Assembly: GCA_016840035.1 (NCBI GenBank)
Contig: JAEOTC010000234.1
Location: 1 to 18,887 of the forward strand
Length of the DNA stretch: 18,887 bases
Direction of reading: 5' to 3'
Origin: Candidatus Hodarchaeota archaeon
GTDB lineage: Archaea > Asgardarchaeota > Heimdallarchaeia > Hodarchaeales > Hodarchaeaceae
Part shown: in pieces, positions 1,298 through 18,887 of the stretch
Position numbering within the stretch: the stretch's first letter is position 1
Layout of the letters: each line of letters begins with the position of its first letter
The notes under the pieces: model-generated
The model's database searches: none
Told to the model about the DNA's origin: nothing
What the model saw: only the letters and a program-made list of their open reading frames with translations
Program-made: the position numbers and the translations under genes

Positions 1298-1303
1298 AGC
1301 AAA

Positions 1304-1355
1304 GTATATACCATGGTATATACTTTTGTAACCTAAACCAGCCTTTGACGGAGTT
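1304..1355 (+). repeat. Module-boundary repeat R1 (full copy)
   Basis: gtatatac catg gtatatac ttttgtaacc taaaccagcc tttgac ggagtt. 1301-1326 is a perfect 26-bp palindrome, starting just after the stop at 1297. Confidence 0.9.
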
Positions 1356-1669
1356 CGAGAAAAAGTTAGATACAAGGAAGTTGATCAGATGTTATTTTAA
1401 TATAACAAACGAAAAAATTGAGAAAAGAACATTTGTTCCTCAGACCTTAAGATTTTGAAGTTGAACTAATCTATCTTCGAAATATTCTCTTATCTTTTAC
1501 TTCGATGAGGTTGCTTTTCACTCTTCGAAATAAAGGAGAATCTAAACTAATACATTAGATATTTCAGACTTATAACAGGCTTTTTCTCATCGATGTGGGA
1601 ATATACACGAGAATGTATCTTAAGGTGGTAAGATATTTATACCCTAATCCCCTAGTATTCTTGAATGGT

Positions 1670-1939
1670 ATGAAAGGAATAAAAGTGTATATTGATCCAA
1701 GAATTGAAGAAGAATTTCGAAAAACAGCAATGAAAGTATTTGGTTATGGAAAAGGATCTTTGAGTAAAGCAGCAGAGCAAGCTTTCAAGAAATGGATTCA
1801 AGAATATTCGAGTGACCTAGAAACTATTAACATTCCAGAAGATCCAATTCGTGAAATAAGAGGACAACTTGCGGAGATTACTCTCACATCTGTAGAACTT
1901 CAACACGGAGTAAAGGAATATCGCATTGGAAGTCAATAG
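1670..1939 (+). CDS. vapB: Antitoxin (RHH/CopG-like), partner of the downstream PIN toxin
   Basis: MKGIKVYIDPRIEEEFRK...GKGSLSKAAEQAFKKW..., ending in the typical archaeal antitoxin TSVELQH tail. TATA-like tttata at ~1636-1641 supports ATG 1670 over 1595. Confidence 0.75.
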   Translation: MKGIKVYIDPRIEEEFRKTAMKVFGYGKGSLSKAAEQAFKKWIQEYSSDLETINIPEDPIREIRGQLAEITLTSVELQHGVKEYRIGSQ

Positions 1940-1955
1940 TTTGTAGGGAGTAATC

Positions 1956-2357
1956 GTGTTAATTGATACAAATATATTCTTGGAAGTACAACTCAATCAG
2001 CAAAAAGCACAAGAAGCATCGGAAATATTAGAAGCTGTTTCTAAAAATATCATCCAGGCATATGTCACTGATTTTACCATTGATTCAATTGTACTTATTA
2101 TGGAACATTATAACAAATCACCAGCCGAAATAAAACAATTCCTTGTTTCTTTACTTGCTTATGAAGGCCTGGATTTCTATCAACTATCTATTTTCGACAA
2201 AATTAAAGCTACAGAGTATATGAACTCACTACACCTAGATTTTGATGATGCTTGTATGTATCAAGCCATGAGAGCATTAAAAATCACTACGATTGCTTCG
2301 TTTGATACGGATTTTGATAAAATTTCCAGTATCAAACGGTTAGTATCTTTAACTTAG
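1956..2357 (+). CDS. vapC: PIN-domain ribonuclease toxin
   Basis: LIDTNIFLE...LDFDDA...SFDTDFD acidic PIN motifs. Confidence 0.9.
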   Translation: MLIDTNIFLEVQLNQQKAQEASEILEAVSKNIIQAYVTDFTIDSIVLIMEHYNKSPAEIKQFLVSLLAYEGLDFYQLSIFDKIKATEYMNSLHLDFDDACMYQAMRALKITTIASFDTDFDKISSIKRLVSLT

Positions 2358-2407
2358 GTTCTGCCCACTATTCCTCTTCAATGTCCATGACTTCTAATAT
2401 TTAGGGA

Positions 2408-2458
2408 ATATATACCTTGGTATATTTTTTGTAATCTAAACCAGCCTATGAAGACATC
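2408..2458 (+). repeat. Module-boundary repeat R2
   Basis: atatatac cttg gtatattt tttgtaatc taaaccagcc tatgaa gacatc. Confidence 0.85.
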
Positions 2459-3045
2459 GACGGGTGCATACTCATCATTGTTTGCTCTGAATACTTCTTG
2501 AAATTTAGTAGCTGTTTTCTCATCATTATCAAATCTAATCTTGGGACAAAAAAGCTTAGAAGTTTACCAATAACGCCGTTTGGAAACGACCATCTAATTT
2601 TAACCAAGAGTCGAGATTTTTGCGAATTTAACTTATATATCACATAACTCACTAAAAATTGTCCATAGAGATGAGTAAGAAGTGGATTAGACGGAGATGC
2701 AAACGTTATATGTTTGTTAGGAGAATATGCAAGAAGTGGGAATATTGTCATGATTGTTTGTCGTTTTTCTAACTTATGCGCATTTTTAATCAAATAATTA
2801 GGGCTTTTTATACCAAAATTATCTAACCAATCGTAACTATACGGAGCATAATTCATCTGGCATACCCATAAAAAGACAATCTTTGGAGAAGCCTCAATTG
2901 TGACCCCTCTATAATAGCTTATAGCGTTTTTTAACAAATATCTGTCACAAGGGTATGTCATCTTTCGTTCCTTTAAACTTGTACCCCATGTTTCGTTTAC
3001 TGACAAAATTAATTTTTCTCCAGTTCCGGTTATTTGATTTTTCAC
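2446..3045 (-). CDS. SRPBCC/polyketide cyclase-like protein
   Basis: WG....YPCD...RGVTIEASP..VF.W.CQM..APYSYDWLDN.G..SP, ending D.IMMRKQLL. This pattern resembles bacterial SRPBCC-like proteins. Confidence 0.6.
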   Translation of the reverse strand: MKNQITGTGEKLILSVNETWGTSLKERKMTYPCDRYLLKNAISYYRGVTIEASPKIVFLWVCQMNYAPYSYDWLDNFGIKSPNYLIKNAHKLEKRQTIMTIFPLLAYSPNKHITFASPSNPLLTHLYGQFLVSYVIYKLNSQKSRLLVKIRWSFPNGVIGKLLSFFVPRLDLIMMRKQLLNFKKYSEQTMMSMHPSMSS

Positions 3046-3120
3046 TTATCTTTGAGAGTCTGACACCTTTTAAATTTTCAATCTTTTCGGGGATGTTGAT
3101 CTAGTTTCCAAAGTTCTAAT

Positions 3121-3807
3121 TTATGATTCTGTAAGAACCTGTATCCATTCTTCTGCTGTAAAATATGCCTTTGACTCACCTGACATACATCTTCTTCTTA
3201 TAATCTCCAACATACTTGGATAATCTTCTGTTGTATTTCCAGCGTTTACTGTTTCAGTAATTGCAGTATAAAGAAAAAAATCGTGAAAATAGAGAAAATT
3301 AGACAAAAGACTAATCCATTTATATTCTAACGTATAAAATTTAGTATAACCTCTGTAAAATGAAGGAATGAATTCCTTTAGAACCTTAATTGCAGAGGTG
3401 ACAGGTTTTTCCCAAATTAAACTCTATACTACTATTACTATGTCATAAATAAACCAGCCGTAACAACATGAATCAAATAGTATTAGCTTTGTTTTATTAT
3501 GAATATAGTAGTTTCCCCAGTTTAAATCACCATGAACCATTCCATAAGCGTTTTTCGGTTTAGGGAGAGTTGAAATCCAATTTATCAACTGATTATATAC
3601 TCTGATAATGTCTTTGTCTTTTTCATGATCGAGAATGGTGTTATATATTAGAAAAATGTCTTCCTCAAACTCTATTCTGTTAGAAGTTTTATTAGGAACA
3701 AAATCTATTGATAAGCTATGCATTTTAACTAAGATTTCTCCCATTTTTTCCCACAGAGCTTCATTCCATTCTTGACAAAATAATCTGATTAAGAAATAAT
3801 ACTTCAA
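3121..3807 (-). pseudogene. APH/choline kinase/type II homoserine kinase-like phosphotransferase, 5'-truncated, with an internal TAG
   Basis: HGDLNWGN Brenner motif and CCYGWFIYDI. ORFs 3424..3807 and 3121..3306 are in the same frame and separated only by TAG at 3424-3426 (...IVV*SLIWEKP...FYRGY...). The N-lobe is missing and DFD is degraded to LFD. Confidence 0.75.
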
Positions 3808-4020
3808 TCATAAATATACTCAATAATAATAACTTACGGTTTGAGAAGGATTGATAAAGATATTTATTATCTTAGCAAACTATAGACAGATAGAGAGGGA
3901 AGTAGAATTCTTAGATCGTAAATAAAGTTCTGAATTAGAAAAATATAAACAGGAGGAAGAGCTATAAACATCATCCTCTAAAGGTTATACTGACCAATAC
4001 TTTCGAATGGATTTGAGAAA

Positions 4021-4968
4021 ATGAAATCAGAATATGATTTATCGGTTTCAGATGAGGCATTTGGTAAAATAGAGAAGTATATTACTACATCAATTATTGA
4101 AGCAATGAAATTTCACCAAACGGAGGGAGCGCTCGTCATTTATTCGGGACAAGTTGACTCTTATGTCGCCACTAGACTAACGATAGCAGCTATTGGATTA
4201 GAAAAAGTTAATTTGGTGATTCTCTCTGATGTTGATGAAAATAGACGAAAAAGAATTATAGAAGAAGCGTATAGATTATTTAATATTCCAAGTGAGAGAA
4301 TTCATGCATTTAAGATTAAAAAAATCATGAAGAAAATTGACACAATAGAAGAAATTGATCCCTCAATATCATCAAGCTTATCTCACCAGAGGATCCACAA
4401 TATTGGCCACCTGCTTTTAAAATCCCCCTTTGCCCAGAAATTAGTGGAGGAGAAAACTCTGTCGATTGTAGGACCACCAAAATCAGAAAGAGAGAAGTTT
4501 GTGGCTAAAATACTTGCGTATTCAAAGCTAAAAAAACGATTAAAGACCCTATTAGCTTATTTGGTGGCTGAAACAGAGAATTTATTATTAGTGAACAAAA
4601 CGAATAAAACAGAATGGGATTTAGGCTTGCTGACAACGTGGGGGTATGGCCATGTCGGCTCCATTATGCCTTTGGGAAACTTATACAAAACACAAGTAGT
4701 AGAAATAGCAAAAATTCTGCATGTACCAAAAGAATTACTTGATAAGACGTATAGCGACATTATGCCTGGTGTAGAGAATAAATATCAATATTTATTCCAG
4801 TTACCGTTTCATGAGATAGACCAAATTCTATTACGACTGAAAAAAGGTCTTTCTACTGCTGAAATTGTCAAAGAATTACAACGGAAGGAAAAAATTATCC
4901 TGAGAATAGAGTATTTTTACAAAGTCGCTCAGTATATGCTGAATCTGCCCGTGATTCCCTTTTGGTAA
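4021..4968 (+). CDS. NAD+ synthetase (NadE)-like protein with degenerate motifs
   Basis: SGQVDS PP-loop variant, NKTE and PLGNLYKTQV..IA..L.VP, typical of the NH3-dependent NadE fold. Confidence 0.7.
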   Translation: MKSEYDLSVSDEAFGKIEKYITTSIIEAMKFHQTEGALVIYSGQVDSYVATRLTIAAIGLEKVNLVILSDVDENRRKRIIEEAYRLFNIPSERIHAFKIKKIMKKIDTIEEIDPSISSSLSHQRIHNIGHLLLKSPFAQKLVEEKTLSIVGPPKSEREKFVAKILAYSKLKKRLKTLLAYLVAETENLLLVNKTNKTEWDLGLLTTWGYGHVGSIMPLGNLYKTQVVEIAKILHVPKELLDKTYSDIMPGVENKYQYLFQLPFHEIDQILLRLKKGLSTAEIVKELQRKEKIILRIEYFYKVAQYMLNLPVIPFW

Positions 4969-5113
4969 TTAATTTATTATTTCAATCATTTCCAAGTTTG
5001 TCAAAGAACATCGACCTTGTAGTTTTTTGTAAGAATAAATCATTCTATTCCAGCAAAATTGACTGACAACTTTGATTGTTTTTGGTAAAAGAAAAGAAAC
5101 CTCATCTTAGTGT

Positions 5114-5135
5114 TAATCCAGCCTTTGACGGAGTT
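5114..5135 (+). repeat. Module-boundary repeat R3 (right half only)
   Basis: taatccagcctttgacggagtt matches 1334-1355 at 21 of 22 positions, with no GTATATAC arms upstream. Confidence 0.85.
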
Positions 5136-5141
5136 GGGAAA

Positions 5142-5172
5142 TTTTATATATGTTTGAACATACACATAAACA
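5142..5172 (+). promoter_or_regulatory. TATA box and probable antitoxin operator of the second vapBC
   Basis: ttttatata about 25-30 bp before ATG 5172, followed by inverted tgttt...aaaca / atgtt..aacat. Confidence 0.5.
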
Positions 5173-5390
5173 TGGTATCGAAAACAATTACTGTGAAAGA
5201 AGCAGCTTATCAAGCTTTAAAATCATTACAATTGGAAGGGGAATCTTTTTCAGACACAATTTTACGTATTTCTGGACTATTTGGAAATTTAAGAGATTAT
5301 TGGGGAGTTGGTACTAAATCTAAGCGTGAGTATGAAGAAGAACTCGCTGAAATTGAACAAAGACGTCACAATTTTTTCCAAGGACGATAA
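5172..5390 (+). CDS. vapB: Archaeal VapB antitoxin (DUF217-like)
   Basis: MVSKTITVKEAAYQALKSL..EGESFSDTILR signature; ATG at 5172. Confidence 0.85.
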   Translation: MVSKTITVKEAAYQALKSLQLEGESFSDTILRISGLFGNLRDYWGVGTKSKREYEEELAEIEQRRHNFFQGR

Positions 5391-5394
5391 GGTT

Positions 5395-5790
5395 ATGAAG
5401 TTCTTGGACACTTCTTTTTTAATAGATGTAATAAGAAAACATGCTCCAGCTAAAACACTTTTAGATGATTTGGACAAAGAAGGTCCTCACATAACAAATA
5501 CGATTGTAGCTCATGAATTCTTAGTAGGAGCTTTTGGAACAATAAACTCGGAAATGGAACTGAAATTTCGAAATAACCGTCTAAGTGGAATAGTTATTCT
5601 GGACTTTGATCTGGCTGCTGCAAATCGATCTGTTATAATAGAAGCAAACTTACGAGCGAAAGGCGAAATGATTGGGGGAGCTGATATTCTAATTGCTGGT
5701 ACAATGATTTCACGAGGAATTTCAACCATAGTTACAAAGAATACTCGTCATTTTGAGAAAATTCCTCAAATCGCTATCAAAACCCGGTGA
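5395..5790 (+). CDS. vapC: PIN-domain ribonuclease toxin
   Basis: MKFLDTSFLID...E...G..IGGADILIAG...IVTKNTRHF; ATG at 5395, just after the vapB stop. Confidence 0.9.
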   Translation: MKFLDTSFLIDVIRKHAPAKTLLDDLDKEGPHITNTIVAHEFLVGAFGTINSEMELKFRNNRLSGIVILDFDLAAANRSVIIEANLRAKGEMIGGADILIAGTMISRGISTIVTKNTRHFEKIPQIAIKTR

Positions 5791-5817
5791 TTAATGACCA
5801 ACTTTTTCAATTCATGA

Positions 5818-5867
5818 ATCTATAAGAGGATTTACTGTTGTAATCTATACCAACTATGGACGACGTT
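5818..5867 (+). repeat. Module-boundary repeat R4 (degenerate)
   Basis: ...ggatttac tgttgtaatc tataccaact atggac gacgtt aligns with the consensus spacing; the left arms are decayed. Confidence 0.6.
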
Positions 5868-5973
5868 CATCATTCAAATCAATTTTTAAATTTCCCTATT
5901 ATGGACGACAATTTTATATGGTTATATTTCCTTAGATGTAAGCTAGTAATAATACATCAGAATTGATAAAATC

Positions 5974-6369
5974 ATGATTAAGACATTACAGAGTGGGACT
6001 AGAAAGCTTAAGAAAGAAACTTATACCCTTTATCTTGTGTATAAAGACTCCCGAATCTCTTGGTGGAAGCGATTATTTCTCGGTATCGTTATTGGTTATG
6101 CTTTTTGCCCAATTGATCTTGTCCCAGATTTCATTCCTATTTTAGGTTATTTAGACGATTTGATCTTAGTACCTATTGGTATATCTATTGCCCTAAAACT
6201 GATTCCCAAAGAAATCTTTGAAGAATGTCGAGCTAAGGCCAATGAAGAAAAAGAGAAAGATGTACCAATTGGAAAGAAAACAGCTCTTTTAATCATCTTT
6301 ATTTGGATCGTTGGATTAGGCCTTCTTTTTATATGGATTGTTGATTTATTGAAGATAGTATTACAATAA
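5974..6369 (+). CDS. YkvA/DUF1232 family membrane protein
   Basis: YAFCPIDLVPDFIPILGYLDD motif. Confidence 0.9.
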   Translation: MIKTLQSGTRKLKKETYTLYLVYKDSRISWWKRLFLGIVIGYAFCPIDLVPDFIPILGYLDDLILVPIGISIALKLIPKEIFEECRAKANEEKEKDVPIGKKTALLIIFIWIVGLGLLFIWIVDLLKIVLQ

Positions 6370-6430
6370 TTTACATCTTTTAACAGTAGTATTGGTTTTT
6401 GACTCTTCTTCAGATGTTTTTTGAGTGAAG

Positions 6431-6486
6431 GTATATACCTCAGTATATACTCTTGTTATCTAAACCAGCCATACGACATTTGTCGT
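6431..6486 (+). repeat. Module-boundary repeat R5
   Basis: gtatatac ctca gtatatac tcttgttatc taaaccagcc, then a divergent right end containing the hairpin acgaca-tt-tgtcgt. Confidence 0.9.
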
Positions 6487-6551
6487 CATTCACCTGTAGA
6501 TTATTTTCATATCTAGGATATTTATCTTAAACATAAAATTTATTAGTATCT

Positions 6552-6579
6552 GTCTTACAAATTAATCGTTTTGTCTTAC
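6552..6579. promoter_or_regulatory. Candidate NikR operator
   Basis: gtctta-N16-tcttac resembles the NikR operator GTATGA-N16-TCATAC. It is also a tgtcttaca direct repeat (6551, 6572) upstream of the nikR-containing operon. Confidence 0.5.
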
Positions 6580-6614
6580 AGAAGAAAATTCCTCTTCAAT
6601 AAAGGTATATAGAA

Positions 6615-7301
6615 ATGCACATTCCTGACGGTTGGATTGATCCTTTTTTCTTGATAATCACCTGGCTCGTAACGATTGTCATCCTAATGATTAGTATTAG
6701 AAAAATGAAAGATATTAATGAAACTCGATTAACTTACATGGCTGTTCTTGCTGGAACTATTTTTGCTGCTCAAATGTTGAACTTTCCGATTCTGGGTGGT
6801 ACTTCAGGTCATCTTTTAGGAGGTGCTCTAGCTGCATCAATTGTGGGTCCATGGGGTGGGTGTTTAGTCGTTTCTGTGGTATTAGTCATACAAGCTTTTC
6901 TTTTCGCTGATGGGGGAATAATTACTCTCGGAGCTAATATCTTTAACATGGCTATTGTTGGGGTCTTTTTAGCATATTTTATTTTAAGGATTTTTATGCT
7001 CAATTCCACTCCTAAGGATCGATATCGATATTATGGAGGAGTATTCCTGGGTTCCTTCCTCTCTGTGATAGTCGCTTCCGTTTTTGCGGCGATAGAAATT
7101 GGAATTCCTGTAATAAATAATATTTCACAAGTAAAATTCTTTGATTCCATTTTCATCATTTTGTTTTATCATCTTCTTATTGGTCTTGGTGAGGGAATCA
7201 TTACCGTCATCATTGTGAGATATTTCAATGCTATTCAAATGAATGTATTTCTTGAGATTGATAATCCCTCTTTTTCTTATAATTCTACCAGGAGGAGATA
7301 A
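6615..7301 (+). CDS. cbiM: ECF Ni/Co transporter S component CbiM/NikM
   Basis: N-terminal MHIPDG metal-binding motif; AQMLNFP..GGTSGHLLGG; FADGG...LGAN. Confidence 0.95.
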   Translation: MHIPDGWIDPFFLIITWLVTIVILMISIRKMKDINETRLTYMAVLAGTIFAAQMLNFPILGGTSGHLLGGALAASIVGPWGGCLVVSVVLVIQAFLFADGGIITLGANIFNMAIVGVFLAYFILRIFMLNSTPKDRYRYYGGVFLGSFLSVIVASVFAAIEIGIPVINNISQVKFFDSIFIILFYHLLIGLGEGIITVIIVRYFNAIQMNVFLEIDNPSFSYNSTRRR

Positions 7302-7304
7302 AAA

Positions 7305-7604
7305 ATGGAGAACCGTTCTAAGATTTTAATTGGATCCGTATTTATTATCATCTTACTGCTTATTTTAAGTCCTTTTGCTGATCCTAATCCCGATGGTTTA
7401 GAAAGCGCTGCTGGTGAGGGTAATTACGAAGGTAGTGCGTTTAATTTAGGATTCTTAACTGATTATGGATCTGAAGACTCTTTAATCTATCAATTTGTCC
7501 AGAATGACATGATAGCTACCATTGTTTCTGGTTTAATTGGAATAATTGTTGTTGTTGGCATATTCAGTCTGCCTCTTTTATTCTTACGACTAAAAAAAGA
7601 GTAA
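7305..7604 (+). CDS. PDGLE-domain protein (NikN-type auxiliary subunit)
   Basis: Two TM helices flanking PDGLE; operon position. Confidence 0.9.
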   Translation: MENRSKILIGSVFIIILLLILSPFADPNPDGLESAAGEGNYEGSAFNLGFLTDYGSEDSLIYQFVQNDMIATIVSGLIGIIVVVGIFSLPLLFLRLKKE

Positions 7605-7611
7605 ACATTAA

Positions 7612-8409
7612 ATGATAGTTAAACATCATCACTATATCGATCTAAGAACTCAGAAACAGTTATTTGATACTAGGAGTAAACTAATAGGATTAATTGTCAT
7701 TGTCCTCGGAGGTTCATTGCTTGTTGATCTATTTCAGGTCTCCTGGTATTTTCTTCTTCTTCTTCTCCTCCTCCCTATTTTAAAACCTCGAAGGACATTT
7801 TTAAAACAGATTATCTTTACTCTTCCCTTGATTCTTTCTCTTTCATTAATTTCATTTTTTTCTTTTGATCCTCACTCTTTTAGTAATTTTTTGTACGAAG
7901 CTGTTCATACTAAAACCTCCTTTGCGTTTTTTACTGCTTTTCGTAGTATTATGATTATATCTTTTATCCTAGTAATCGTCAATTCTGAGGAGTCATTTTT
8001 CGAGATTATTTACGGATTGGATGATTTAAAACTACCAGGGTTACTTACAAACCTATTATTTTTGACCTATCACTTTTTCAATCTTATCCAAGAGGAATTT
8101 TCACGAATTTTAGATGCTCGTTCAAATCGAATGTTTAGTGAAAGTTCTATCATGCAATTAGGGTCATTAAAACTTATCGGTAATATTTTAGGAGCCTCTC
8201 TTGCACGATCATTTAAACGGGCTGAATACATATCAGCTTCGTTGTCTGCAAGAGGATTTACAAGTACTAGTACCTTCTCTCATCCTGAAAAACCATGGAC
8301 ACGAAGTGGTGTTTTATTTATTATCTGCATACTAATTATTAGTATTTTTATTGGGATTTATGGGCAGAATTCACTTATTGATTTGGTTTTAGGATTGAAA
8401 ACACAATGA
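7612..8409 (+). CDS. cbiQ: ECF transporter T component CbiQ/NikQ
   Basis: Hydrophobic; D.R.K near the N-terminus; AR..R and RAE....L.ARGF motifs. Confidence 0.9.
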   Translation: MIVKHHHYIDLRTQKQLFDTRSKLIGLIVIVLGGSLLVDLFQVSWYFLLLLLLLPILKPRRTFLKQIIFTLPLILSLSLISFFSFDPHSFSNFLYEAVHTKTSFAFFTAFRSIMIISFILVIVNSEESFFEIIYGLDDLKLPGLLTNLLFLTYHFFNLIQEEFSRILDARSNRMFSESSIMQLGSLKLIGNILGASLARSFKRAEYISASLSARGFTSTSTFSHPEKPWTRSGVLFIICILIISIFIGIYGQNSLIDLVLGLKTQ

Positions 8410-9116
8410 AATCGCAAAAAAAATATGCAGTGAGTGTTCGGAATTTAAGTTATAGATATTTGAAAAACCAACCTGAGGTTTTAAGAAACATTTCTATTAA
8501 TTTTCCTCTTCATAAAATTACAGCCATTGTTGGTCCGAATGGATCGGGAAAAACCACTTTATTAAAGCATTTCAATGGTCTTTTTATGGCTCAAAATGGT
8601 GAAGTATTCGTAAATGGCCAGATTGTAAATAAAAAAACTCGTACAACCGTTCAAAAACAAATTGGTATTGTTTTTCAAAATCCAGATGAACAGATATTTT
8701 ATCCTAAGGTCTATGATGATGTAGCATTTGGCCCGAGGAACATGAAGTTAAGTATAGCTGAAATTCAGGAAAGAGTTGCTCAAGCTGGAAAATTAGCACA
8801 GATATCACATTTAATGGATCGAATCACTTTCAATTTGTCCTTTGGAGAAAAAAAGAAAGTAGCTATAGCCGGTATCTTAGCAATGCAGCCTGAAATTCTT
8901 GTATTAGATGAACCTACAATAGGTATTGATCCATGGTCGAAGGGTCATTTCATTTCCCTCATCAATTCTTTTAGTCCAGAAAAGACAGTAATAGTAATAA
9001 CTCATGATTTTGAAATAATGAAATCTGTTGATAATATTATCCTTTTAAAAAATGGAGAAGTTGAAGGAGAATATATTGATTTTAATTCCTTTTATCAAGA
9101 AGAATTTGTAAGTTAA
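8406..9116 (+). CDS. cbiO: ECF transporter ATPase CbiO/NikO
   Basis: GPNGSGKT Walker A, FQNPDEQ, LSFGEKK signature, LDEPT, THD. Confidence 0.95.
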   Translation: MKSQKKYAVSVRNLSYRYLKNQPEVLRNISINFPLHKITAIVGPNGSGKTTLLKHFNGLFMAQNGEVFVNGQIVNKKTRTTVQKQIGIVFQNPDEQIFYPKVYDDVAFGPRNMKLSIAEIQERVAQAGKLAQISHLMDRITFNLSFGEKKKVAIAGILAMQPEILVLDEPTIGIDPWSKGHFISLINSFSPEKTVIVITHDFEIMKSVDNIILLKNGEVEGEYIDFNSFYQEEFVS

Positions 9117-9125
9117 GGTGATTCA

Positions 9126-9542
9126 ATGACTTTAAAAGAAATCCGTGAAACTATTACATTTTCTTGTGATCCACGATTTAAGAAAATGCTTTCAACAAAG
9201 AAAAGAGAATTGGGATATCGAACAAATTCCCAGATGATAAGGGATGCACTTATGTTTCTTTTCAATTCAGAAAACATGCTAGAGAAGATTTCTGATACTG
9301 ATATGATCGTGACATTGATTTCATTAGTTTATAATCCTCAAGATTCTAGTACACTTGAAGAATATTTGCGTGTACAACATCAATCTAATGTAACATTCTC
9401 TTCACATTTTCATCTTCCCTCTGGAGACTGCTTTGAAATTTTAATGCTGAATGATAAAGCTAGAAATGTTAAAAACCTAATTCAAAAGTTGCGCGGAGTC
9501 AAAGGTTTGCAGAATATTTCTGTAAAAGTGATTAATATTTAA
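9126..9542 (+). CDS. nikR: NikR-like nickel-responsive regulator
   Basis: N-terminal RHH (ITFS...GYRTNSQMIRDA) and a C-terminal ACT-like domain with QH...HFH....DC Ni ligands. Confidence 0.8.
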   Translation: MTLKEIRETITFSCDPRFKKMLSTKKRELGYRTNSQMIRDALMFLFNSENMLEKISDTDMIVTLISLVYNPQDSSTLEEYLRVQHQSNVTFSSHFHLPSGDCFEILMLNDKARNVKNLIQKLRGVKGLQNISVKVINI

Positions 9543-9624
9543 TTCAGGAGGACGATTTTAGCTACAAATTCATCTACTTAAGTGAAAGAACATTTATGTA
9601 AATAATTCAACAATTCAACCGTTA

Positions 9625-9676
9625 ATATATACCCTAGTATTTATTTTTCTTATCTAAACCAGCCCTTGACAGAGTT
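9625..9676 (+). repeat. Module-boundary repeat R6 (full copy)
   Basis: atatatac ccta gtatttat ttttcttatc taaaccagcc cttgac agagtt. Confidence 0.9.
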
Positions 9677-9809
9677 CCGACATTATGTTGAAGTATAAAC
9701 TTGGACAGAAAACCTAGGGATACAAATATACATTTATACTTGTAGTATTTGATCCTTAAATAGAATTTATGGCTGATATCTGAGGTAGATAGAATAAAAA
9801 GTTGTTACA

Positions 9810-10082
9810 GTGAGAAATATGACAACAGTTCGGTTAAATAAAGATGATGAAGATCTTTTAGAAAGATTAAGAGCTCGTTATATATTAATGGGTAAAAAAA
9901 TGACTAAAAAAGAAATTTTAGGGAATTTGATTAGACAAGAAGCTAAAAAGTTTGAAGACGAAGTACTAAATCATCATCTACCAAGTCTAGAAGATGATTT
10001 TGCTTGGAAACTACTTCAAAAACCAATAAAATGGGGAATTAAAGACACTTCTACCACCGTTGATGAATATCTTTATCATTGA
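9810..10082 (+). CDS. vapB: Putative antitoxin
   Basis: Small protein (MTTVRLNKDD...L..L; ends W G..DTS..VDEYLY) directly upstream of a PIN gene. Start is GTG 9810 or ATG 9819. Confidence 0.7.
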   Translation: MRNMTTVRLNKDDEDLLERLRARYILMGKKMTKKEILGNLIRQEAKKFEDEVLNHHLPSLEDDFAWKLLQKPIKWGIKDTSTTVDEYLYH

Positions 10083-10091
10083 GGTATTTCT

Positions 10092-10502
10092 ATGGTTATT
10101 TTTTTAGACACAGGTTTCATTCTTGCTATACGCAATTCTGATGATAATAATCATATGAAAGCAGCTGAACTTATGAAAGAATGTTTAGCAGGAAAATTTG
10201 GAAGAATCATTGTATCAGATTTTGTATTTGATGAAACTGTAACATTAACATTGGTAAGAACCCATAATAAAAACCTTGTCAAAGATATTGGAGAGTTTAT
10301 TTTCAATTCACCCAGAATCAATTTACTTCATCTAAGTGAAACGGAATTTTTGGCTACTTGGGAATTATTCCTCAAATACTTTGAAAAAGGACTTTCATTT
10401 ACTGATTGTTCCATTCTAGTTATGGCAAAGCTCTTTGAAAGCAATGTGTATATTGCTACATTTGATAGTCACTTTGAAGGCCTCCTTCCTATCATTGAAT
10501 GA
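10092..10502 (+). CDS. vapC: PIN-domain ribonuclease toxin
   Basis: IFLDTGF...D.NH...VFDET...LSFTDC...ATFDSHF. Confidence 0.9.
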   Translation: MVIFLDTGFILAIRNSDDNNHMKAAELMKECLAGKFGRIIVSDFVFDETVTLTLVRTHNKNLVKDIGEFIFNSPRINLLHLSETEFLATWELFLKYFEKGLSFTDCSILVMAKLFESNVYIATFDSHFEGLLPIIE

Positions 10503-10505
10503 TTC

Positions 10506-10556
10506 TTATAATCCTAAGTATATACTTTGTTATCTAAACCAGCCTTTTACGAAGTT
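10506..10556 (+). repeat. Module-boundary repeat R7
   Basis: (ttataatc ctaa) gtatatac tttgttatc taaaccagcc ttttac gaagtt, starting a few bp after the vapC stop. Confidence 0.85.
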
Positions 10557-10619
10557 GTAACTTCTTCTCAATTTCTCTTTTAAGGTAAGGACTGGAAAAA
10601 GCGCTATTGTTAATTTTGT

Positions 10620-10715
10620 TCCATTAGATTTCAAAATTGGGTTACATTCCATAAATGACCTCTTGGCTACAGCATCGAAAAGAAATTTTTCTTTCTTAAG
10701 CGTGAAATCACGATA
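10620..10715 (-). pseudogene. Fragment of an MDR/NAD(P)-dependent alcohol dehydrogenase-like gene
   Basis: Manual translation YRDFTLKKEKFLFDAVAKRSFMECNPILKSNG resembles the MDR C-terminal pattern DFT....YD.IFDAVGK.SF..C...LK.NG. No upstream part of the gene is present. Confidence 0.4.
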
Positions 10716-10892
10716 GAAACCATAAATAAAGAGTTAATTTTTTGTCTATTCCGAAGAAAGAAGAAAAAAGCACCATCCGGATGTTAAAAAGTACAAAAAA
10801 AAGTAATTATTAGAGTAGTAACAAATTCTAGAATATTTATACAAACCAAAAGGTTTATAATTACCAAGTGGTTAGTACAAAAATGATGAAAA

Positions 10893-11981
10893 ATGCCACG
10901 AGGAGAAAAAAACAAGTTAAATCCTAGTGATATAGAAGGTATACTTGAATTACGGGGAAAAAAGTCAGGATACTCTGTTGCTGAGGATTTTAATGTTTCT
11001 CCAACAATGATCTACAAGATATGGAATAATCCACATCTTTACATCCGATTAGATCCCTCGATAGACGAATTAATTTTGAAGAAGATTCTCAGCAGAGTCA
11101 GTCCATTGGATCTACGATCTCTTGTTACATTTTCTAGACCAGTAGAAAAATGGGAAATTAATTACAGGGATGTTAATCCCTTTGATTTTACACAACATGA
11201 GAAATTTCGGCTTGATAGCCTGTATAAGAAGACTTATTCAACTCCTTATCGCCAGAATTATAACATTCTAATAATTGGTGATGAAGCAGCGGGGAAACTG
11301 ACATTACTAACAAGATATTTGGATGGATATTTTGATGAAGATATGCCAAAAACGGCAATGCAATTTAGAAAGCATCATACCACATTAAAAGACGTAATAA
11401 ATGAATCAACTATACCAATGGATGAAATTGATGATCATTCATTATGTTTTAATTACTGGAAGATGGGAGGGCTGTCAATGTTTGATGAATTAAGATCAAA
11501 TTATTTAGCAGGTACTCAGGGAATAATTCTAACTTTTACTTTAACTGATGAAAGAGCATTAACAAGTTTTATAGGAGATAAAAGCCATATAATTGGTCGT
11601 TTTTTAAAACAACTAGTAGATTATTTCGATAAAAAAACATTAAGAAATATTCCAGTATTATTAGTAGGAACAAAAGAAGATCTGATAGCTACGGAGGGGA
11701 ACAAAGAAGAAGAATTGATTAAGAAAGCAAATAAAATTGCATCTCAACTTAAAAAAAATGGAATAAACTTAGTAAAGTACTCTAAATCTGAAGAAAATCT
11801 CATAAAAGTTATGGAAGATAAACAACAATCTAATGAAAATGAAAACGTCAGTTATTGGTTACCTATATCTTCAAAAACTGGTAAAAATGTTTTTTTAATG
11901 TTTAAACTAATTGAAATCGCTGTACTCTCTCAATATGAGCATATTAAGAAATTCAAAAAACATAACTTTATAATCCATTAA
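10893..11981 (+). CDS. HTH-fused Ras/Rab-like small GTPase with degenerate G boxes
   Basis: N-terminal HTH-like segment (YSVAEDFNVSPTMIYKIW); ILIIGDEAAGKLT (G1), YWKMGG (G3), LVGTKEDL (G4), ISSKTG.NV..MF (G5). Confidence 0.75.
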   Translation: MPRGEKNKLNPSDIEGILELRGKKSGYSVAEDFNVSPTMIYKIWNNPHLYIRLDPSIDELILKKILSRVSPLDLRSLVTFSRPVEKWEINYRDVNPFDFTQHEKFRLDSLYKKTYSTPYRQNYNILIIGDEAAGKLTLLTRYLDGYFDEDMPKTAMQFRKHHTTLKDVINESTIPMDEIDDHSLCFNYWKMGGLSMFDELRSNYLAGTQGIILTFTLTDERALTSFIGDKSHIIGRFLKQLVDYFDKKTLRNIPVLLVGTKEDLIATEGNKEEELIKKANKIASQLKKNGINLVKYSKSEENLIKVMEDKQQSNENENVSYWLPISSKTGKNVFLMFKLIEIAVLSQYEHIKKFKKHNFIIH

Positions 11982-12002
11982 TGGTTAAAAATTGGTCTCC
12001 GC

Positions 12003-13286
12003 ATGGTGACAACAATGAAAAGAGAATTTCTGATTTTAATAATTATTATATCAATTCTTATGTTTCCTACTTTGACCTTTAACAAAAAACAGAATAGTGG
12101 TTTTCGTGCATTAAATTATCATTCAAATGCAGAAGATATGCACCATAATCCGGTGTTATTTTTACACTGTTGGACTGGAACAAATTACTCCTGGTACCTT
12201 CACAAAAATTTGTTAGAACAAGATGGATGGCCAGCCAGCTATTTGCATGCGTATAATTTTGATGATACAAATAATTGCTCCCTTCAAGCAAGTTTCCATA
12301 AAGCCAACCAAGTAAAAGAATGGGTAGATACTATTCTAAACCAGACTGGAGCTGATAAAATCGACCTTGTAGGCCATTCCTTAGGCGGAATGATAGCTCG
12401 GTATTATATTAAGTTTCTGGGTGGAAATAATATGGTTGATGACTATGTGAGTCTGGGGAGTCCACATCATGGGGAATTGAATACACCCTGTGGAGCAGCT
12501 GGCGTGAATACACTTGCAGTTATGTTAAACGAAGGTGATGCAACCCCTGGAGGCGTTTTAAATGATACAATTGGGGAAAGAGTAGATCCTATACTTGGAT
12601 ATATCTATAACAGCACACACATCCCAGGGACTATTTCATATACCTCTATTTACAGTCTTACTGATGACGTAGTTCCATATATCTCATCAGTCCTAGATGG
12701 AGCAAAGAATATTCCAGTCACAGATGTAACTCATATGGCAATACCGACAGATACGGAAATTTTTGAACTTACAAAACAAGCTATTGATGATCCTCATGAG
12801 CTATCATCTCCTAGCCTCATTACTCCAATCGGTAATGAAATAATCCCGGGAAATGTCAATATTTCTTGGACTACTTCGATTGATACCTGGGGATATGATG
12901 TAACTTATGACGTCTATTATTCCCTAGATCAGGGGGATAATTGGGTCTTATTAATAACAAATACGACTGAAACAAGTTTTATTTGGAATGCAAGTTTGAT
13001 TACGGAAGATTCAAATTTAATTCTGAAAATTCTTGCATTTAGCTCTGGGGATTTGAGTACAGAATTTGTTTCTACAAACTTTATTTTTGTAGGCCAGACG
13101 AGTAGTACTCAAACCACAACAACAGCTTCCTCTTCCAATTTCATTACTACTCCGGTAAGTTCTACACAAACTACTACGACTGAACCAACATTTGGTTGGG
13201 AAGTGCTTTTCTTACCCCTTTCTGTCTCATATCTGATTAGTCTTCGTCGGTTGAAAAGAAGGAAGAATGTTCCCAAGAAAAAGTAG
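12003..13286 (+). CDS. Secreted, cell-anchored alpha/beta-hydrolase (lipase/esterase) with an Ig/FN3-like domain and CTERM-type anchor
   Basis: Signal peptide; PVLFLH; VGHSLGG nucleophile elbow; LGSPHHG; D.VV and VTH; ISW...YDVYYS.D.G.NW beta domain; Ser/Thr-rich linker; hydrophobic helix plus basic tail. Confidence 0.85.
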   Translation: MVTTMKREFLILIIIISILMFPTLTFNKKQNSGFRALNYHSNAEDMHHNPVLFLHCWTGTNYSWYLHKNLLEQDGWPASYLHAYNFDDTNNCSLQASFHKANQVKEWVDTILNQTGADKIDLVGHSLGGMIARYYIKFLGGNNMVDDYVSLGSPHHGELNTPCGAAGVNTLAVMLNEGDATPGGVLNDTIGERVDPILGYIYNSTHIPGTISYTSIYSLTDDVVPYISSVLDGAKNIPVTDVTHMAIPTDTEIFELTKQAIDDPHELSSPSLITPIGNEIIPGNVNISWTTSIDTWGYDVTYDVYYSLDQGDNWVLLITNTTETSFIWNASLITEDSNLILKILAFSSGDLSTEFVSTNFIFVGQTSSTQTTTTASSSNFITTPVSSTQTTTTEPTFGWEVLFLPLSVSYLISLRRLKRRKNVPKKK

Positions 13287-13378
13287 TGCCAAAATTTATT
13301 ATTTTTTAATTTGAATTGGTAAAATGTTAAGATTACTTAAATGAGTTTACAGGAAACTGTAAAAGGAGAAATCTATAA

Positions 13379-13999
13379 ATGACAGAAACGAATTGCAGAA
13401 CTGAAAACTCAGTGTGGAAGTACACATATGTCATCGGTGGAGTTGCCTCTTTAGTAATAGGTGCAATATTCTCTATTGCCCTTATAGAACTTATGACTGG
13501 AACGATTGAGATCTTTCAAAATAATTTTGTGATCAGATTAATCAAACTGCATGCTGAATATAGTGAAAGTTTAGAGGAGTTATTAGGGGTAGTTAACCTT
13601 TTAGATATGAGTATACTAGTTCTTGTTAGTTTAACAGCTCTTGCTTTTTATCCTACTCTCAGAAATGTCAATGGAACTTTAGCTATTATTGCACTATGCC
13701 AACCCTTCCTCGGTATATTACTTTTTCTAATAACTCAAGAGATCGGTCGAACAGTAACATTTTCTACCGCTTTAACAATTTCTGCTATTATATTATGGAA
13801 TGAACGATCCGATAGAGACGCAATTTTGGGAGTTGTCTCAGCAGGGCTTATTTTAATTCCTGACATTAGTTTTATGTTCTTTTATTCAGAGATAATGTCG
13901 ATTATTATGAGTACTGGATATTTACTCTTTATTCCATGGTGGTTTCGGAGCAGTTTGAGACTCTTTCAGCAAGCAAATAATGCACTTTTAAAAAAATGA
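13379..13999 (+). CDS. Hypothetical multi-pass membrane protein
   Basis: 206-aa ORF with about 6 hydrophobic segments and an AGGAG upstream. Confidence 0.65.
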   Translation: MTETNCRTENSVWKYTYVIGGVASLVIGAIFSIALIELMTGTIEIFQNNFVIRLIKLHAEYSESLEELLGVVNLLDMSILVLVSLTALAFYPTLRNVNGTLAIIALCQPFLGILLFLITQEIGRTVTFSTALTISAIILWNERSDRDAILGVVSAGLILIPDISFMFFYSEIMSIIMSTGYLLFIPWWFRSSLRLFQQANNALLKK

Positions 14000-14114
14000 G
14001 ATCACCAGTGATATAACTAGAATAACTCCAGAAAAAACCCCGTTCTCCTTTATTTTTACGCAGATATTATTATTTAAATTTGTGATTTACTCGTAAAATA
14101 ATCGGTGTAAAAAA

Positions 14115-14642
14115 TTGAATAAACACAATATCTCTTTTTCGTTTGTTGAAAAACAAGTTAGGAAGAAAACATTTGGGATTTTAACCACGCTCAACAAAAA
14201 TGGAACACCACATACTACAGGTATTCTTTATGGAGTTTCATCCCCTGCTAAGGAGTTTGTCTTATACAGTTTAACATCGAAGAAATATAAAAAAGTAAGA
14301 AATATCAAACGAAATCCAAATATTTCCTTTCTTATTCCGTTTCCACATTATTACATTAGATTTGCTCCGGCATCCACTGTTACATTCCAAGGAATAATAG
14401 ACTTCATCCCAGTAGATGATCTAGAGTTCCTTGAGATTTTTTCTAAGAAAAGAATACTTAGACTAATAGTAAAACAAATCCAGAAGGGGGATCATGATAA
14501 TATGACTTTCTTGAGGATAAAACCTAATGCGAAGGTACTCTGTCACGGGTTGGGTATTAATGTGTTCAAAATGAGGAAAGGTCATGCACAAGGAGGGTAT
14601 TCGGTCACAATACCTGAAGATCGGATATTCAAGAAGAACTGA
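14115..14642 (+). CDS. Pyridoxamine 5'-phosphate oxidase-like (FMN/F420 split-barrel) protein
   Basis: FGILTT...G.PH...; KKVRNIKRNPNISF motif. Confidence 0.8.
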   Translation: MNKHNISFSFVEKQVRKKTFGILTTLNKNGTPHTTGILYGVSSPAKEFVLYSLTSKKYKKVRNIKRNPNISFLIPFPHYYIRFAPASTVTFQGIIDFIPVDDLEFLEIFSKKRILRLIVKQIQKGDHDNMTFLRIKPNAKVLCHGLGINVFKMRKGHAQGGYSVTIPEDRIFKKN

Positions 14643-14683
14643 ACTTTTTTAGATAACTTCCCTATTCTTTTTCATATTTAAAA

Positions 14684-14714
14684 GTGTATACCACAGTACA
14701 TACGTTTCTAGTCT
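14684..14714 (+). repeat. Module-boundary repeat R8 (left half only, degenerate)
   Basis: (aaa)gtgtatac caca gtacatac gtttctagtct; similarity stops before AAACCAGCC. Confidence 0.55.
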
Positions 14715-14900: not shown

Positions 14901-15686
14901 TTATTGCATAATCATCTGGGCTCCAATTGAAGCAAAATCTTCTGAAATTCTAGATACATCCCGACGCAAACCATCAAGGTAGACTTCATTATTCCATTTT
15001 TCAGGAAAAATTTCCAGAAGGTTGGGTTTAATTCTCCTAATACCAGGGATATTCTCTTCATATAAGCTATTTGTAGACTCTAATGCAATTTCATTCACAA
15101 AGATACTATTGAAAAATTCGCAAATAAGAACTCTCATCGGCGCAGGAGAGTAGTAGAATTCTTCATTATTTTCCGCTGCTTTTCTTAACATAACCATTGG
15201 TTCCTTGAGTGGAAAAACGAGTTGTGTCAATATTTTTCCTCGCTCAAAAGCCTGACGACTTTGTCTTGCATAATCTTCTTGTACCTGTAATGTAATAAAA
15301 GAGAACTCTAGGAGATTATCCCCCGAAATCATGAATTCATTGAAAGGAGGAAACACAAATGGTTCGGTATTGAAGTGGTGATTAAGCCATTTTTCTTCTG
15401 GTATGACAAGACCAGTTAAATACCTATTATCTGTAGCTATTCTATTTCCTATGGAAAATTTAGTCCAATATATCCCTATTCCATGAAGTAGGATATATGA
15501 AAGATTATAAAGTATCAAACGTGAAAAATTCACTGGAATAAAAATCACACTGGATGTTTTAATGGATTCAACGTCTTGATTCTTATAAATCCATTTCTTA
15601 TCTCTTGACTTGTCAGGATCAGCAAAAGAAATCCAGTCTGGTATTACAACTAATGATCTTAACAATCCTAAAGGTTGCTTTCTCAT
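14901..15686 (-). CDS. Hypothetical protein
   Basis: 261-aa ORF with no recognised motif. Confidence 0.6.
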   Translation of the reverse strand: MRKQPLGLLRSLVVIPDWISFADPDKSRDKKWIYKNQDVESIKTSSVIFIPVNFSRLILYNLSYILLHGIGIYWTKFSIGNRIATDNRYLTGLVIPEEKWLNHHFNTEPFVFPPFNEFMISGDNLLEFSFITLQVQEDYARQSRQAFERGKILTQLVFPLKEPMVMLRKAAENNEEFYYSPAPMRVLICEFFNSIFVNEIALESTNSLYEENIPGIRRIKPNLLEIFPEKWNNEVYLDGLRRDVSRISEDFASIGAQMIMQ

Positions 15687-15919
15687 TTTAAGTCAACTTC
15701 GTATGAATCTAGTTCAAGAATGTTGCTTCAATTATATAGATTAGCTATGACTGAATTTGTCAGACAACTCTTTGAAAAGAATTCTGGACTGGATAAGTCA
15801 CATATCCACTATCTGGCAGGATCGATCAAGAACATGAGTGTGTGTGTTGCTTTAATCTAAAAAGAATTTAATATTAGAGGTCTGAAACAAAAAAAGAAGA
15901 AGGAGCGATTAAATCACTC

Positions 15920-18677: not shown

Positions 18678-18887
18678 TGAATTCGAAAAAAGATCGTATA
18701 TACTCGGAGGATGGATGAACAGGAAAGGGATAGATTTTTCATTTATTCCTTACTTGAAACAAATTTCTTATAGTATTTATTTGACCAAAATGATATGCAT
18801 CGTGAAAGATCAAGGTTGAGATTATTCTTTTCATTGGCCACAACTCATCCCTACGAGTATCTATCTTATCATCCAATTGTTCATCTG

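Follow-up and report, generated by a model that had tools for sequence, protein, structure and literature searches.

The repeats that punctuate an 18,887-bp stretch of DNA from an Asgard archaeon of the genus Candidatus Hodarchaeum, i.e. the whole of contig C220 (hereafter, the window) of a 4.3-Mb, 293-contig, 87% complete metagenome-assembled genome (MAG), are probably double-stranded site-specific recombination sites that join accessory-gene modules into arrays, as judged by comparison of sequences between strains and species. The sites, their uniform direction, the shuffling of the modules between them and the breakpoints at the site core are all shown by the sequences. A preliminary description of this stretch had proposed that the repeats are cassette-shuffling sites matching neither attC nor dif; this proposal is supported by our results, which reveal no conserved hairpin and no recognisable dif.

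Alignment of the copies defines a 53-bp unit, the full or R site, which consists of an octamer pair, a T-run, a left arm, the core CCAGCC and a right arm that is looser than the left arm. The octamers are two copies of GTATATAC with starts 12 bp apart, which together form a near-perfect 20-bp palindrome with free central bases; they are followed by a run of four T residues, a left arm ending in ATCTAAA, the core, and a right arm that is either TTTKACGRAG-like or of a ATGGACGAC variant type. The window contains five full copies (nhmmer E values from 1e-16 to 4e-11), one degenerate copy, one simple site and one left-half remnant, all on the + strand, as follows (HMM, hidden Markov model):

1304..1356, + strand: full site R, with a perfect 20-bp double octamer, T-run, left arm, core CCAGCC and consensus right arm; the top-scoring match in its own genome (E 3e-16)
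2408..2458, + strand: full site R with an atypical right arm; left arm and core are retained and the right side is foreign
5110..5135, + strand: simple site S, without octamers; 8-nt arm GTGTTAAT, core CCAGCC and right arm
5816..5868, + strand: degenerate full site R, core CCAACT (nhmmer E 4e-9)
6431..6483, + strand: full site R with an atypical right arm (motif and HMM matches)
9625..9677, + strand: full site R (motif, HMM and covariance-model matches)
10506..10557, + strand: full site R with a degenerate first octamer (motif, HMM and covariance-model matches)
14684..14714, + strand: left-part site remnant; octamers, T-run and left arm are present and the core is lost

All eight places previously described as repeat copies on the + strand hold the sequence described, and the observation that seven of them closely follow a + strand stop codon also stands, the distances being 4-83 nt for seven of the eight and 142 nt for the eighth. 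There is indeed a site at the place given as 5114, but its assignment to the same repeat does not hold, because it is a simple S site (5110-5135) and not a truncated R site. A chance origin of the window repeats is excluded: the double octamer has seven matches against 0.11 expected, and the 10-mer TAAACCAGCC, which contains the 6-bp core, has nine against 0.67 expected, with none of 200 shuffles reaching as high in either case. Conservation among the copies is not uniform and instead tracks the motifs, with a free spacer and alternative cores. DNA folds of six copies, on both strands, gave only an 8-11-bp octamer stem, and that in well-kept copies (z from -3.3 to +1.5), without pairing between the two site ends. 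The window has no Rfam match at gathering score and no tRNA gene, and no target duplication or conserved flank was seen around the copies; the possibility, raised earlier, of a known insertion sequence (IS) end or miniature inverted-repeat transposable element (MITE) end is not borne out by the build of the repeat.

There are thus two site classes, R with octamers and S without them. The S site is ~26 bp long with a 6-bp centre, and its 12 strict matches in arrays all lie on the array strand, with none on the opposite strand. Arrays of simple sites alone seem to exist; contig C43 of genome G008 (11295-14702) has four co-oriented S-type sites at distances of 0.7-2 kb and no reported full site.

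Comparisons of strains and species reveal breakpoints inside the repeat, as the cassette proposal had envisaged, and locate them at the edge of the 6-bp core. SDBT01000985.1 and contig C160 of genome G005 are 99.6% identical over 2.5 kb, with 100% identity through the octamers, arm, core and a further 3 nt, after which they are unrelated. In a second strain pair (95% identical), the switch from one valid right arm and its cassette to another occurs exactly after the last base of the core. Genomes G017 and G001 match at 90% identity as far as the final base of a CCAACG core, past which their sequences are unrelated. Pairs with only the upstream module in common are identical through at least site position 46, and through the whole site in one pair; in one pair with only the downstream module in common, identity begins at approximately position 34 of the site. 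Judged from these alignments, variation in the left part of the site follows the upstream module, and variation in the right part follows the downstream one. When every core was scored for its two sides, the array strand gave 54 complete sites, nine left-only hybrids and 21 right-only hybrids, and the opposite strand gave neither complete nor one-sided sites. Joints between a half-site and unrelated DNA at the core edge are of the kind that a site-specific recombinase makes; homologous recombination cannot make them.

The modules between and beyond the sites of the window (ORF, open reading frame) are as follows:

1595..2357, + strand: cassette 1, a vapBC-type pair (114-aa ORF and PIN toxin; Pfam/NCBIfam)
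2446..4968, mixed strands: cassette 2, a 199-aa ORF (- strand, no family), an APH fragment (- strand) and an NAD-synthase-like gene (+ strand)
5136..5790, + strand: cassette 3, a vapBC pair (VapB antitoxin and PIN; Pfam/NCBIfam)
5974..6369, + strand: cassette 4, a DUF1232 (YkvA-like) gene
6615..9542, + strand: cassette 5, cbiM, PDGLE, cbiQ, an ABC ATPase gene and nikR
9810..10502, + strand: cassette 6, a vapBC-type pair (90-aa ORF and PIN)
10893..14642, + strand: cassette 7, genes for a Ras-type GTPase and a class-2 lipase, a 206-aa ORF and a PNPOx-like gene
14901..15686, - strand: cassette 8, a 261-aa ORF of no known family
18723..18887, - strand: the start of a DinB-family cassette, which continues into contig C256 with the next full site

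In relatives, gene order across the repeats is not conserved, as the cassette reading needs, and modules recur with different neighbours, including those with cbi-nikR, vapBC, DinB, endonuclease V, ADH, HepT and NosD genes. The cbiM-PDGLE-cbiQ-cbiO-nikR module of the window recurs in G020, G002 and G014 at 81-84% identity with neighbours that differ in all three genomes; it lies between two sites in G020 and G014, and a site precedes it in G002. Similarly, the vapBC pair at 5136-5790 recurs together with both flanking sites in G014 and G020 (85-89% identity), the 261-aa gene (14901-15686) is flanked by sites on both sides in G004 and lies behind a site in G014, and the DinB-family gene at the end of the contig also serves as a cassette in three other genomes. 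In no case do genomes differ by a bare copy; the difference is always a module together with its site.

With respect to the gene content of the window, matches to Pfam and NCBIfam bear out most of the earlier gene calls, including three PIN/VapC toxins, one with a VapB match, and also thrB and thrC; the 'SRPBCC' ORF (2446-3045) has no family match in these databases. As described previously, the part containing thrB and thrC is free of repeat copies; the array nevertheless continues past both genes. The last 127 bases of the window (18761-18887) recur without a difference at one end of contig C256 from the same assembly, apparently through an assembly-graph overlap, which makes the two contigs neighbours and extends the variable region beyond the window; because the next full site follows on C256, thrB and thrC are embedded in the variable region rather than forming its border. 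The GTPase gene of cassette 7 (10893-11981), i.e. a eukaryote-like signature gene, sits in a mobile context; its product is a small GTPase of the Ras/Roc/Arf type that carries, at its N terminus, an extension of ~120 aa without a known family. At the truncated end of the APH fragment (3424-3807), positions 3450-3459 hold a lone core, four left-arm bases and a weak right arm, which may be a decayed joint that cut the APH gene; an intact APH gene adjoins integrase remnants on contig C160 of G013 (L157:2173-3186). Some 100 nt past the 261-aa cassette, a T-run/left-arm-like stretch without a core (15846-15880) is possibly a decayed site, and the G004 copy of this cassette has a full site at that place. 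Exact-protein look-ups for strain variants of two window cassettes returned no record.

The layout of the arrays was measured at 29 loci, drawn from 14 genomes and from metagenome contigs. Neighbouring sites are co-oriented in 92 of 93 cases, 99 of 107 sites are intergenic and the median site spacing is 1380 bp; one or two genes lie in 57 of 79 intervals, the largest interval holding eight. The genes between sites lie both on the site strand (101) and on the other strand (66), and all four arrangements of flanking genes about a site were found (35 +R+, 21 +R-, 19 -R- and 15 -R+). Site direction is thus not tied to transcription, which argues against a terminator, promoter or untranslated-region element, and terminator and promoter readings are rejected. 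An anchor-gene model, in which the repeats are copies of the tail of one gene, is also rejected, there being no common gene before the first sites of the arrays. Tandem site pairs of R-R and S-R type occur 10-48 nt apart (L061:539-651 and 7239-7328; L048:5103-5198; L065:7586-7662; L049:12626-12745), one such 'empty' joint being present twice on the same contig. Only two inverted site pairs were seen, both on metagenome contigs, one with its sites 2 kb apart (L115:5019-7144) and one head-to-head (L112:608-690).

The sites fall into three core classes with common arms, i.e. CCAGCC, TGTGCG and CCAACG. The TGTGCG core, with the same octamers and arms, occurs in the genome of the window (contigs C4, C211, C200 and C46) and in at least five others, and the CCAACG class was found in 17 of 22 genomes. 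A single core class is present in 34 of the 35 loci with two or more sites, the single mixed array being that of the window, on account of its degenerate copy at 5816 (core CCAACT). Such homogeneity is as expected for heterospecific sites that need matching overlap regions.

An HMM scan of the genome to which the window belongs found ~21 copies on ~9 small, slightly AT-richer contigs, with one strand per contig. A sequence-only covariance model (R1) detected the site in all 21 Ca. Hodarchaeum genomes, at 1-29 copies each, and gave marginal matches only (E 0.003-0.009) in 39 genomes from other genera of the class; in a search of one genome each from 185,579 species, an exact 22-base pattern was found in Hodarchaeum-type MAGs only. 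By these searches the site is restricted to the one genus, with no convincing copy outside it, and scanning of the genome and its relatives with the repeat model confirms that copies are clustered and co-oriented, not scattered genome-wide. Twenty pattern matches in IMG/VR viral contigs were rejected as chance, as they lack octamers, a matching right arm and an integrase and vary in GC content.

From these patterns we infer a mechanism in which strands would be exchanged at the 6-bp core by an enzyme that is most likely a tyrosine recombinase, with a partner protein that would bind the octamers. The full R site would comprise an accessory part, formed by the two palindromic octamers one helical turn apart and the T-run, followed by the left arm, core and right arm; the simple S site would offer only a short arm, core and right arm. 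Insertion or loss of a module would add or remove one site, so that the sites would stay in direct orientation regardless of gene direction, and partners would have to share a core, which would keep the CCAGCC, TGTGCG and CCAACG sets separate. The best candidate for the enzyme appears to be a unit of a genus-specific ~135-aa helical protein and a 290-aa non-IntI integrase, in which case the window would be an integrase-less array akin to a cluster of attC sites lacking integron integrases (CALIN). We put forward tentatively, as a real possibility, that Hodarchaeum runs a dedicated gene-capture platform, which would have arisen independently of integrons and in which this integrase and an octamer-reading partner would insert and excise double-stranded DNA cassettes at the core, with alternative cores forming parallel non-interfering arrays.

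The genome of the window has two tyrosine recombinase (PF00589) genes, encoding XerA (contig C174) and a sporadically distributed integrase (contig C244); no intact serine recombinase gene was found in it, and its sole Y1 (IS200-type) transposase gene is broken by an in-frame stop. XerA scores 272.6 bits with the archaeal XerA model NF040815 (cut-off 220). With TIGR02249 (cut-off 265), XerA, the C244 integrase and an integrase of the complete genome G010 score 169.6, 63.8 and 69.5, respectively, and with NF011946 (cut-off 435) the best of the three scores 104, i.e. all are below the cut-offs. The window itself encodes no recombinase, and there is no integrase beside the arrays of its genome. 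The expectation that the recombinase is encoded elsewhere is consistent with our findings, in that none in the window or assembled genome is linked to the arrays and a dedicated candidate is present in other genomes of the genus. The C244 integrase gene at L069:3896-5417 follows a small overlapping 189-aa upstream ORF of no family, in the same two-gene layout as in G010; no R-like site lies in the 5.6 kb of sequence covered, and TGCA-rich repeats are present downstream of it.

In G010, the 290-aa integrase gene, at L152:9658-10527, overlaps the end of a 135-aa partner ORF at L152:9254-9658. A site with an R-like build, but with TATACGTA octamers and a CCAACG core, follows 349 nt after this unit; beyond it lie a NosD-type gene, whose family also provides a cassette of CCAGCC arrays, and a second such site, the right arm of which equals that of chromosomal CCAACG sites. 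The locus is:

L152:9254-13450 (G010:C1:737253-741449): partner-integrase operon, 55-codon ORF, site, NosD/beta-helix gene and double-core composite site

This locus looks like a one-cassette platform or an integrated element; the same sites occur on contig C52 of G012, 105 nt apart and without cargo. Intact partner-integrase operons are present at four places in three genomes (G010, G021:C94, G012:C70 and G012:C27), and in the latter three places a CCAACG-core site lies 70-190 nt upstream of the operon, the odds of the hexamer being that near by chance being, by our own estimate, roughly 0.16 per operon. The combination of octamer pair, T-run and core at the operon site is clear in G010 and looser in G021, where two similar, non-identical 8-mers are present, and the octamers differ. 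Remnants occur in two CCAGCC arrays: on contig C11 of G011 the partner gene and the first 65 integrase codons are enclosed by sites, and an octamer pair precedes the partner ATG by 11 nt, and on contig C160 of G013 two integrase fragments lie near two sites. The AlphaFold model of the partner protein (mean predicted local distance difference test score 68) has two short helices followed by a long helix, and there is no structural match in the PDB and no Pfam family for the protein; our guess is that its N terminus may be a ribbon-helix-helix and, further, that it may bind the octamers. Because neither operon gene is present in the genome of the window, we read the window as an integrase-less array, for which the recombinase would act in trans, would be XerA, or would be the product of a gene that the 87%-complete assembly lacks.

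Several observations weigh against the recombination-site interpretation or against the proposed enzyme. No recombination product, i.e. an excised circle or an empty site, was seen; the tandem R-R and S-R sites 10-48 nt apart are unexplained; and the homogeneity of the arrays with respect to the core could also come from local duplication. The dyad symmetry of the arms is weak, 3-4 of the six inner arm positions matching in our reading of the sites. The vapBC pair at 1610-2372 is inverted relative to the co-oriented sites in two other species (L062:5422-6185 and L048:2914-3659; 86-87% nucleotide identity), and this occurrence in both orientations is not predicted by a strict cassette of a gene plus its own site, nor is it explained by re-insertion at an asymmetric site. 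With regard to the enzyme, the candidate integrase and its partner are absent from the assembly of the window, intact operons adjoin CCAACG-core sites, with the CCAGCC core linked to broken remnants only, and several array-rich genomes (e.g. G020, G014, G004 and G006) show XerA alone with the query that gave an XerA-like match, one per genome, in nearly all genomes of the genus.

These last genomes bear on what we consider the best of the alternatives, although a rather unlikely one, namely that the mechanism is as proposed but that the enzyme is the host dimer resolvase XerA, with sites that mimic the dif of the genus in the manner of pdif modules and integrative mobile elements exploiting Xer (IMEX). 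The XerA of the genome of the window satisfies the archaeal XerA model, no other tyrosine recombinase is common to nearly all genomes of the genus, and by that query the four array-rich ones named above have no other; the ~26-bp S site with its 6-bp centre would also suit it. Furthermore, two single-contig genomes each have an R/S locus close to the position that faces the best Orc1/Cdc6 gene across the chromosome (G010:C1 289494-334358, Orc1/Cdc6 at 2.72 Mb of 4.94 Mb; G016:C1 3076170-3076433, at 1.68 Mb of ~3.2 Mb), a weak inference because each genome has four Orc1 paralogues; G010, a complete genome, has sites at several distant loci, which speaks against the XerA alternative. No chromosomal dif was identified, our searches giving noise-level counts only (the inner-arm pattern in the genome of the window; a dyad-symmetric S arm in that genome and the genus; S arms with any spacer in the complete genomes), and the text of the XerA papers contains no dif sequence for comparison. 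The arms are poorly symmetric for a homodimeric enzyme, and the octamer pair changes along with the dedicated integrase operon, which points to a dedicated system.

It is very unlikely that the repeat is instead an insulator, operator or terminator, with shuffling by homologous recombination across the shared 50-bp stretch. A 30-50-bp shared block is present at each junction, the octamers resemble TATA boxes or an operator, the G011 pair lies just before a gene start, and seven of the eight window copies lie close behind a stop codon, all of which such a reading would accommodate. It does not accommodate the half-site joints at the core edge, which are beyond homologous recombination, nor the independence of site direction from the flanking genes documented above, the confinement of copies to variable arrays rather than other genes, or the lack of a conserved stable hairpin. 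Still less probable is a non-autonomous mobile repeat, e.g. of the MITE, repetitive extragenic palindromic (REP) or palindrome-associated transposable element (PATE) type, with strand-specific intergenic insertion: the repeat is short, partly palindromic, intergenic and uniform in direction, and the genome has one Y1 transposase gene; that gene, however, has an in-frame stop, there are neither target duplications nor a conserved flank, the copies are confined to a few arrays, and genomes differ by module plus site with no presence or absence of a bare repeat seen. In addition, the motif-wise conservation, free spacer and alternative cores contrast with the uniformity that a recent burst would give. 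A canonical integron or CALIN with diverged attC sites is scarcely credible, although Ghaly et al. 2022 reported integrons and CALINs in archaea, including Asgard MAGs (PMC9668308), and the array layout and toxin-antitoxin cassettes are alike; no attC fold is present, shuffled sequences fold as well as many of the copies do, R''/R' pairing is absent, no tyrosine recombinase reaches a cut-off (best 169.6 against 265, and 104 against 435), and genes lie in both directions.

If the recombination-site interpretation is correct, a cassette system distinct from integrons in both site and enzyme would provide a concrete, testable mechanism for gene flow in Asgard archaea and would extend the short list of gene-capture platforms, presently including integrons and pdif modules. 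No known organisms are more closely related to eukaryotes than the Asgard archaea, above all the Hodarchaeales, and their large genomes contain many transferred genes. With short, well-defined sites and a candidate integrase and partner in hand, in vitro recombination tests are feasible even without a culture. The non-mixing cores could also supply natural sets of orthogonal recombination sites.

Comparison with known systems reveals similarities and differences in each case. The attC sites of integrons contain imperfect inverted repeats (R''-L'' and L'-R') by which the single strand folds into a hairpin, and IntI is a tyrosine recombinase with an IntI-specific insertion. As in integrons and CALINs, the Hodarchaeum arrays are rows of small, unrelated cassettes, many of them toxin-antitoxin pairs, with co-oriented sites and a content that varies among relatives; the upstream cassette carries most of the site along and the downstream cassette its last part; many arrays lack a nearby integrase; and a tyrosine recombinase is the likely enzyme. 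They differ in that the Hodarchaeum site is conserved as a double-stranded sequence with a fixed 6-bp core, whereas attC is a folded single strand conserved in structure, and in that IntI is absent, the sites come in two classes and the cores in at least three, genes of both directions occur with up to eight per cassette, and the candidate integrase has a small partner gene.

Xer/dif-type sites are 28 bp long, with two 11-bp inverted arms around a 6-bp spacer. The pdif modules of Acinetobacter plasmids and IMEX (e.g. CTX phage) resemble the Hodarchaeum modules in being bounded by sites with an arm, a 6-bp centre and an arm, in often carrying toxin-antitoxin or accessory genes, and in having no dedicated recombinase gene in the array, with host Xer as a possible actor. 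However, pdif sites alternate in direction around a module, whereas the Hodarchaeum sites are direct repeats with weakly symmetric arms, a large accessory part (the octamers) on most sites and a chromosomal location in archaeal arrays, and no similarity to host dif is demonstrable for them. The lambda att system also shares features, i.e. a complex site with accessory protein-binding repeats that coexists with a simple, core-only site sharing its core (attP and attB), hybrid sites at junctions, and a site adjoined by the genes for an integrase and a small accessory protein; insertion in series at one att site, i.e. tandem accretion, likewise gives direct repeats. The layout of an integrase beside an att-like site is seen at CCAACG sites in other genomes of the genus, with remnants in two CCAGCC arrays, and not in the window or its genome. 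In contrast with lambda-type elements, the Hodarchaeum units mostly comprise one or two genes without functions in replication or transfer, each genome has dozens of units that are reshuffled among species, and no tRNA or other anchor gene stands at the array start.

We found no description of this system in the archaeal-integron paper (PMC9668308), a study of Asgard mobile elements or full-text literature searches. The present work contributes octamer-bearing and simple site classes, breakpoints at strain level, cores that do not mix, and an operon of an integrase and its partner beside the sites.

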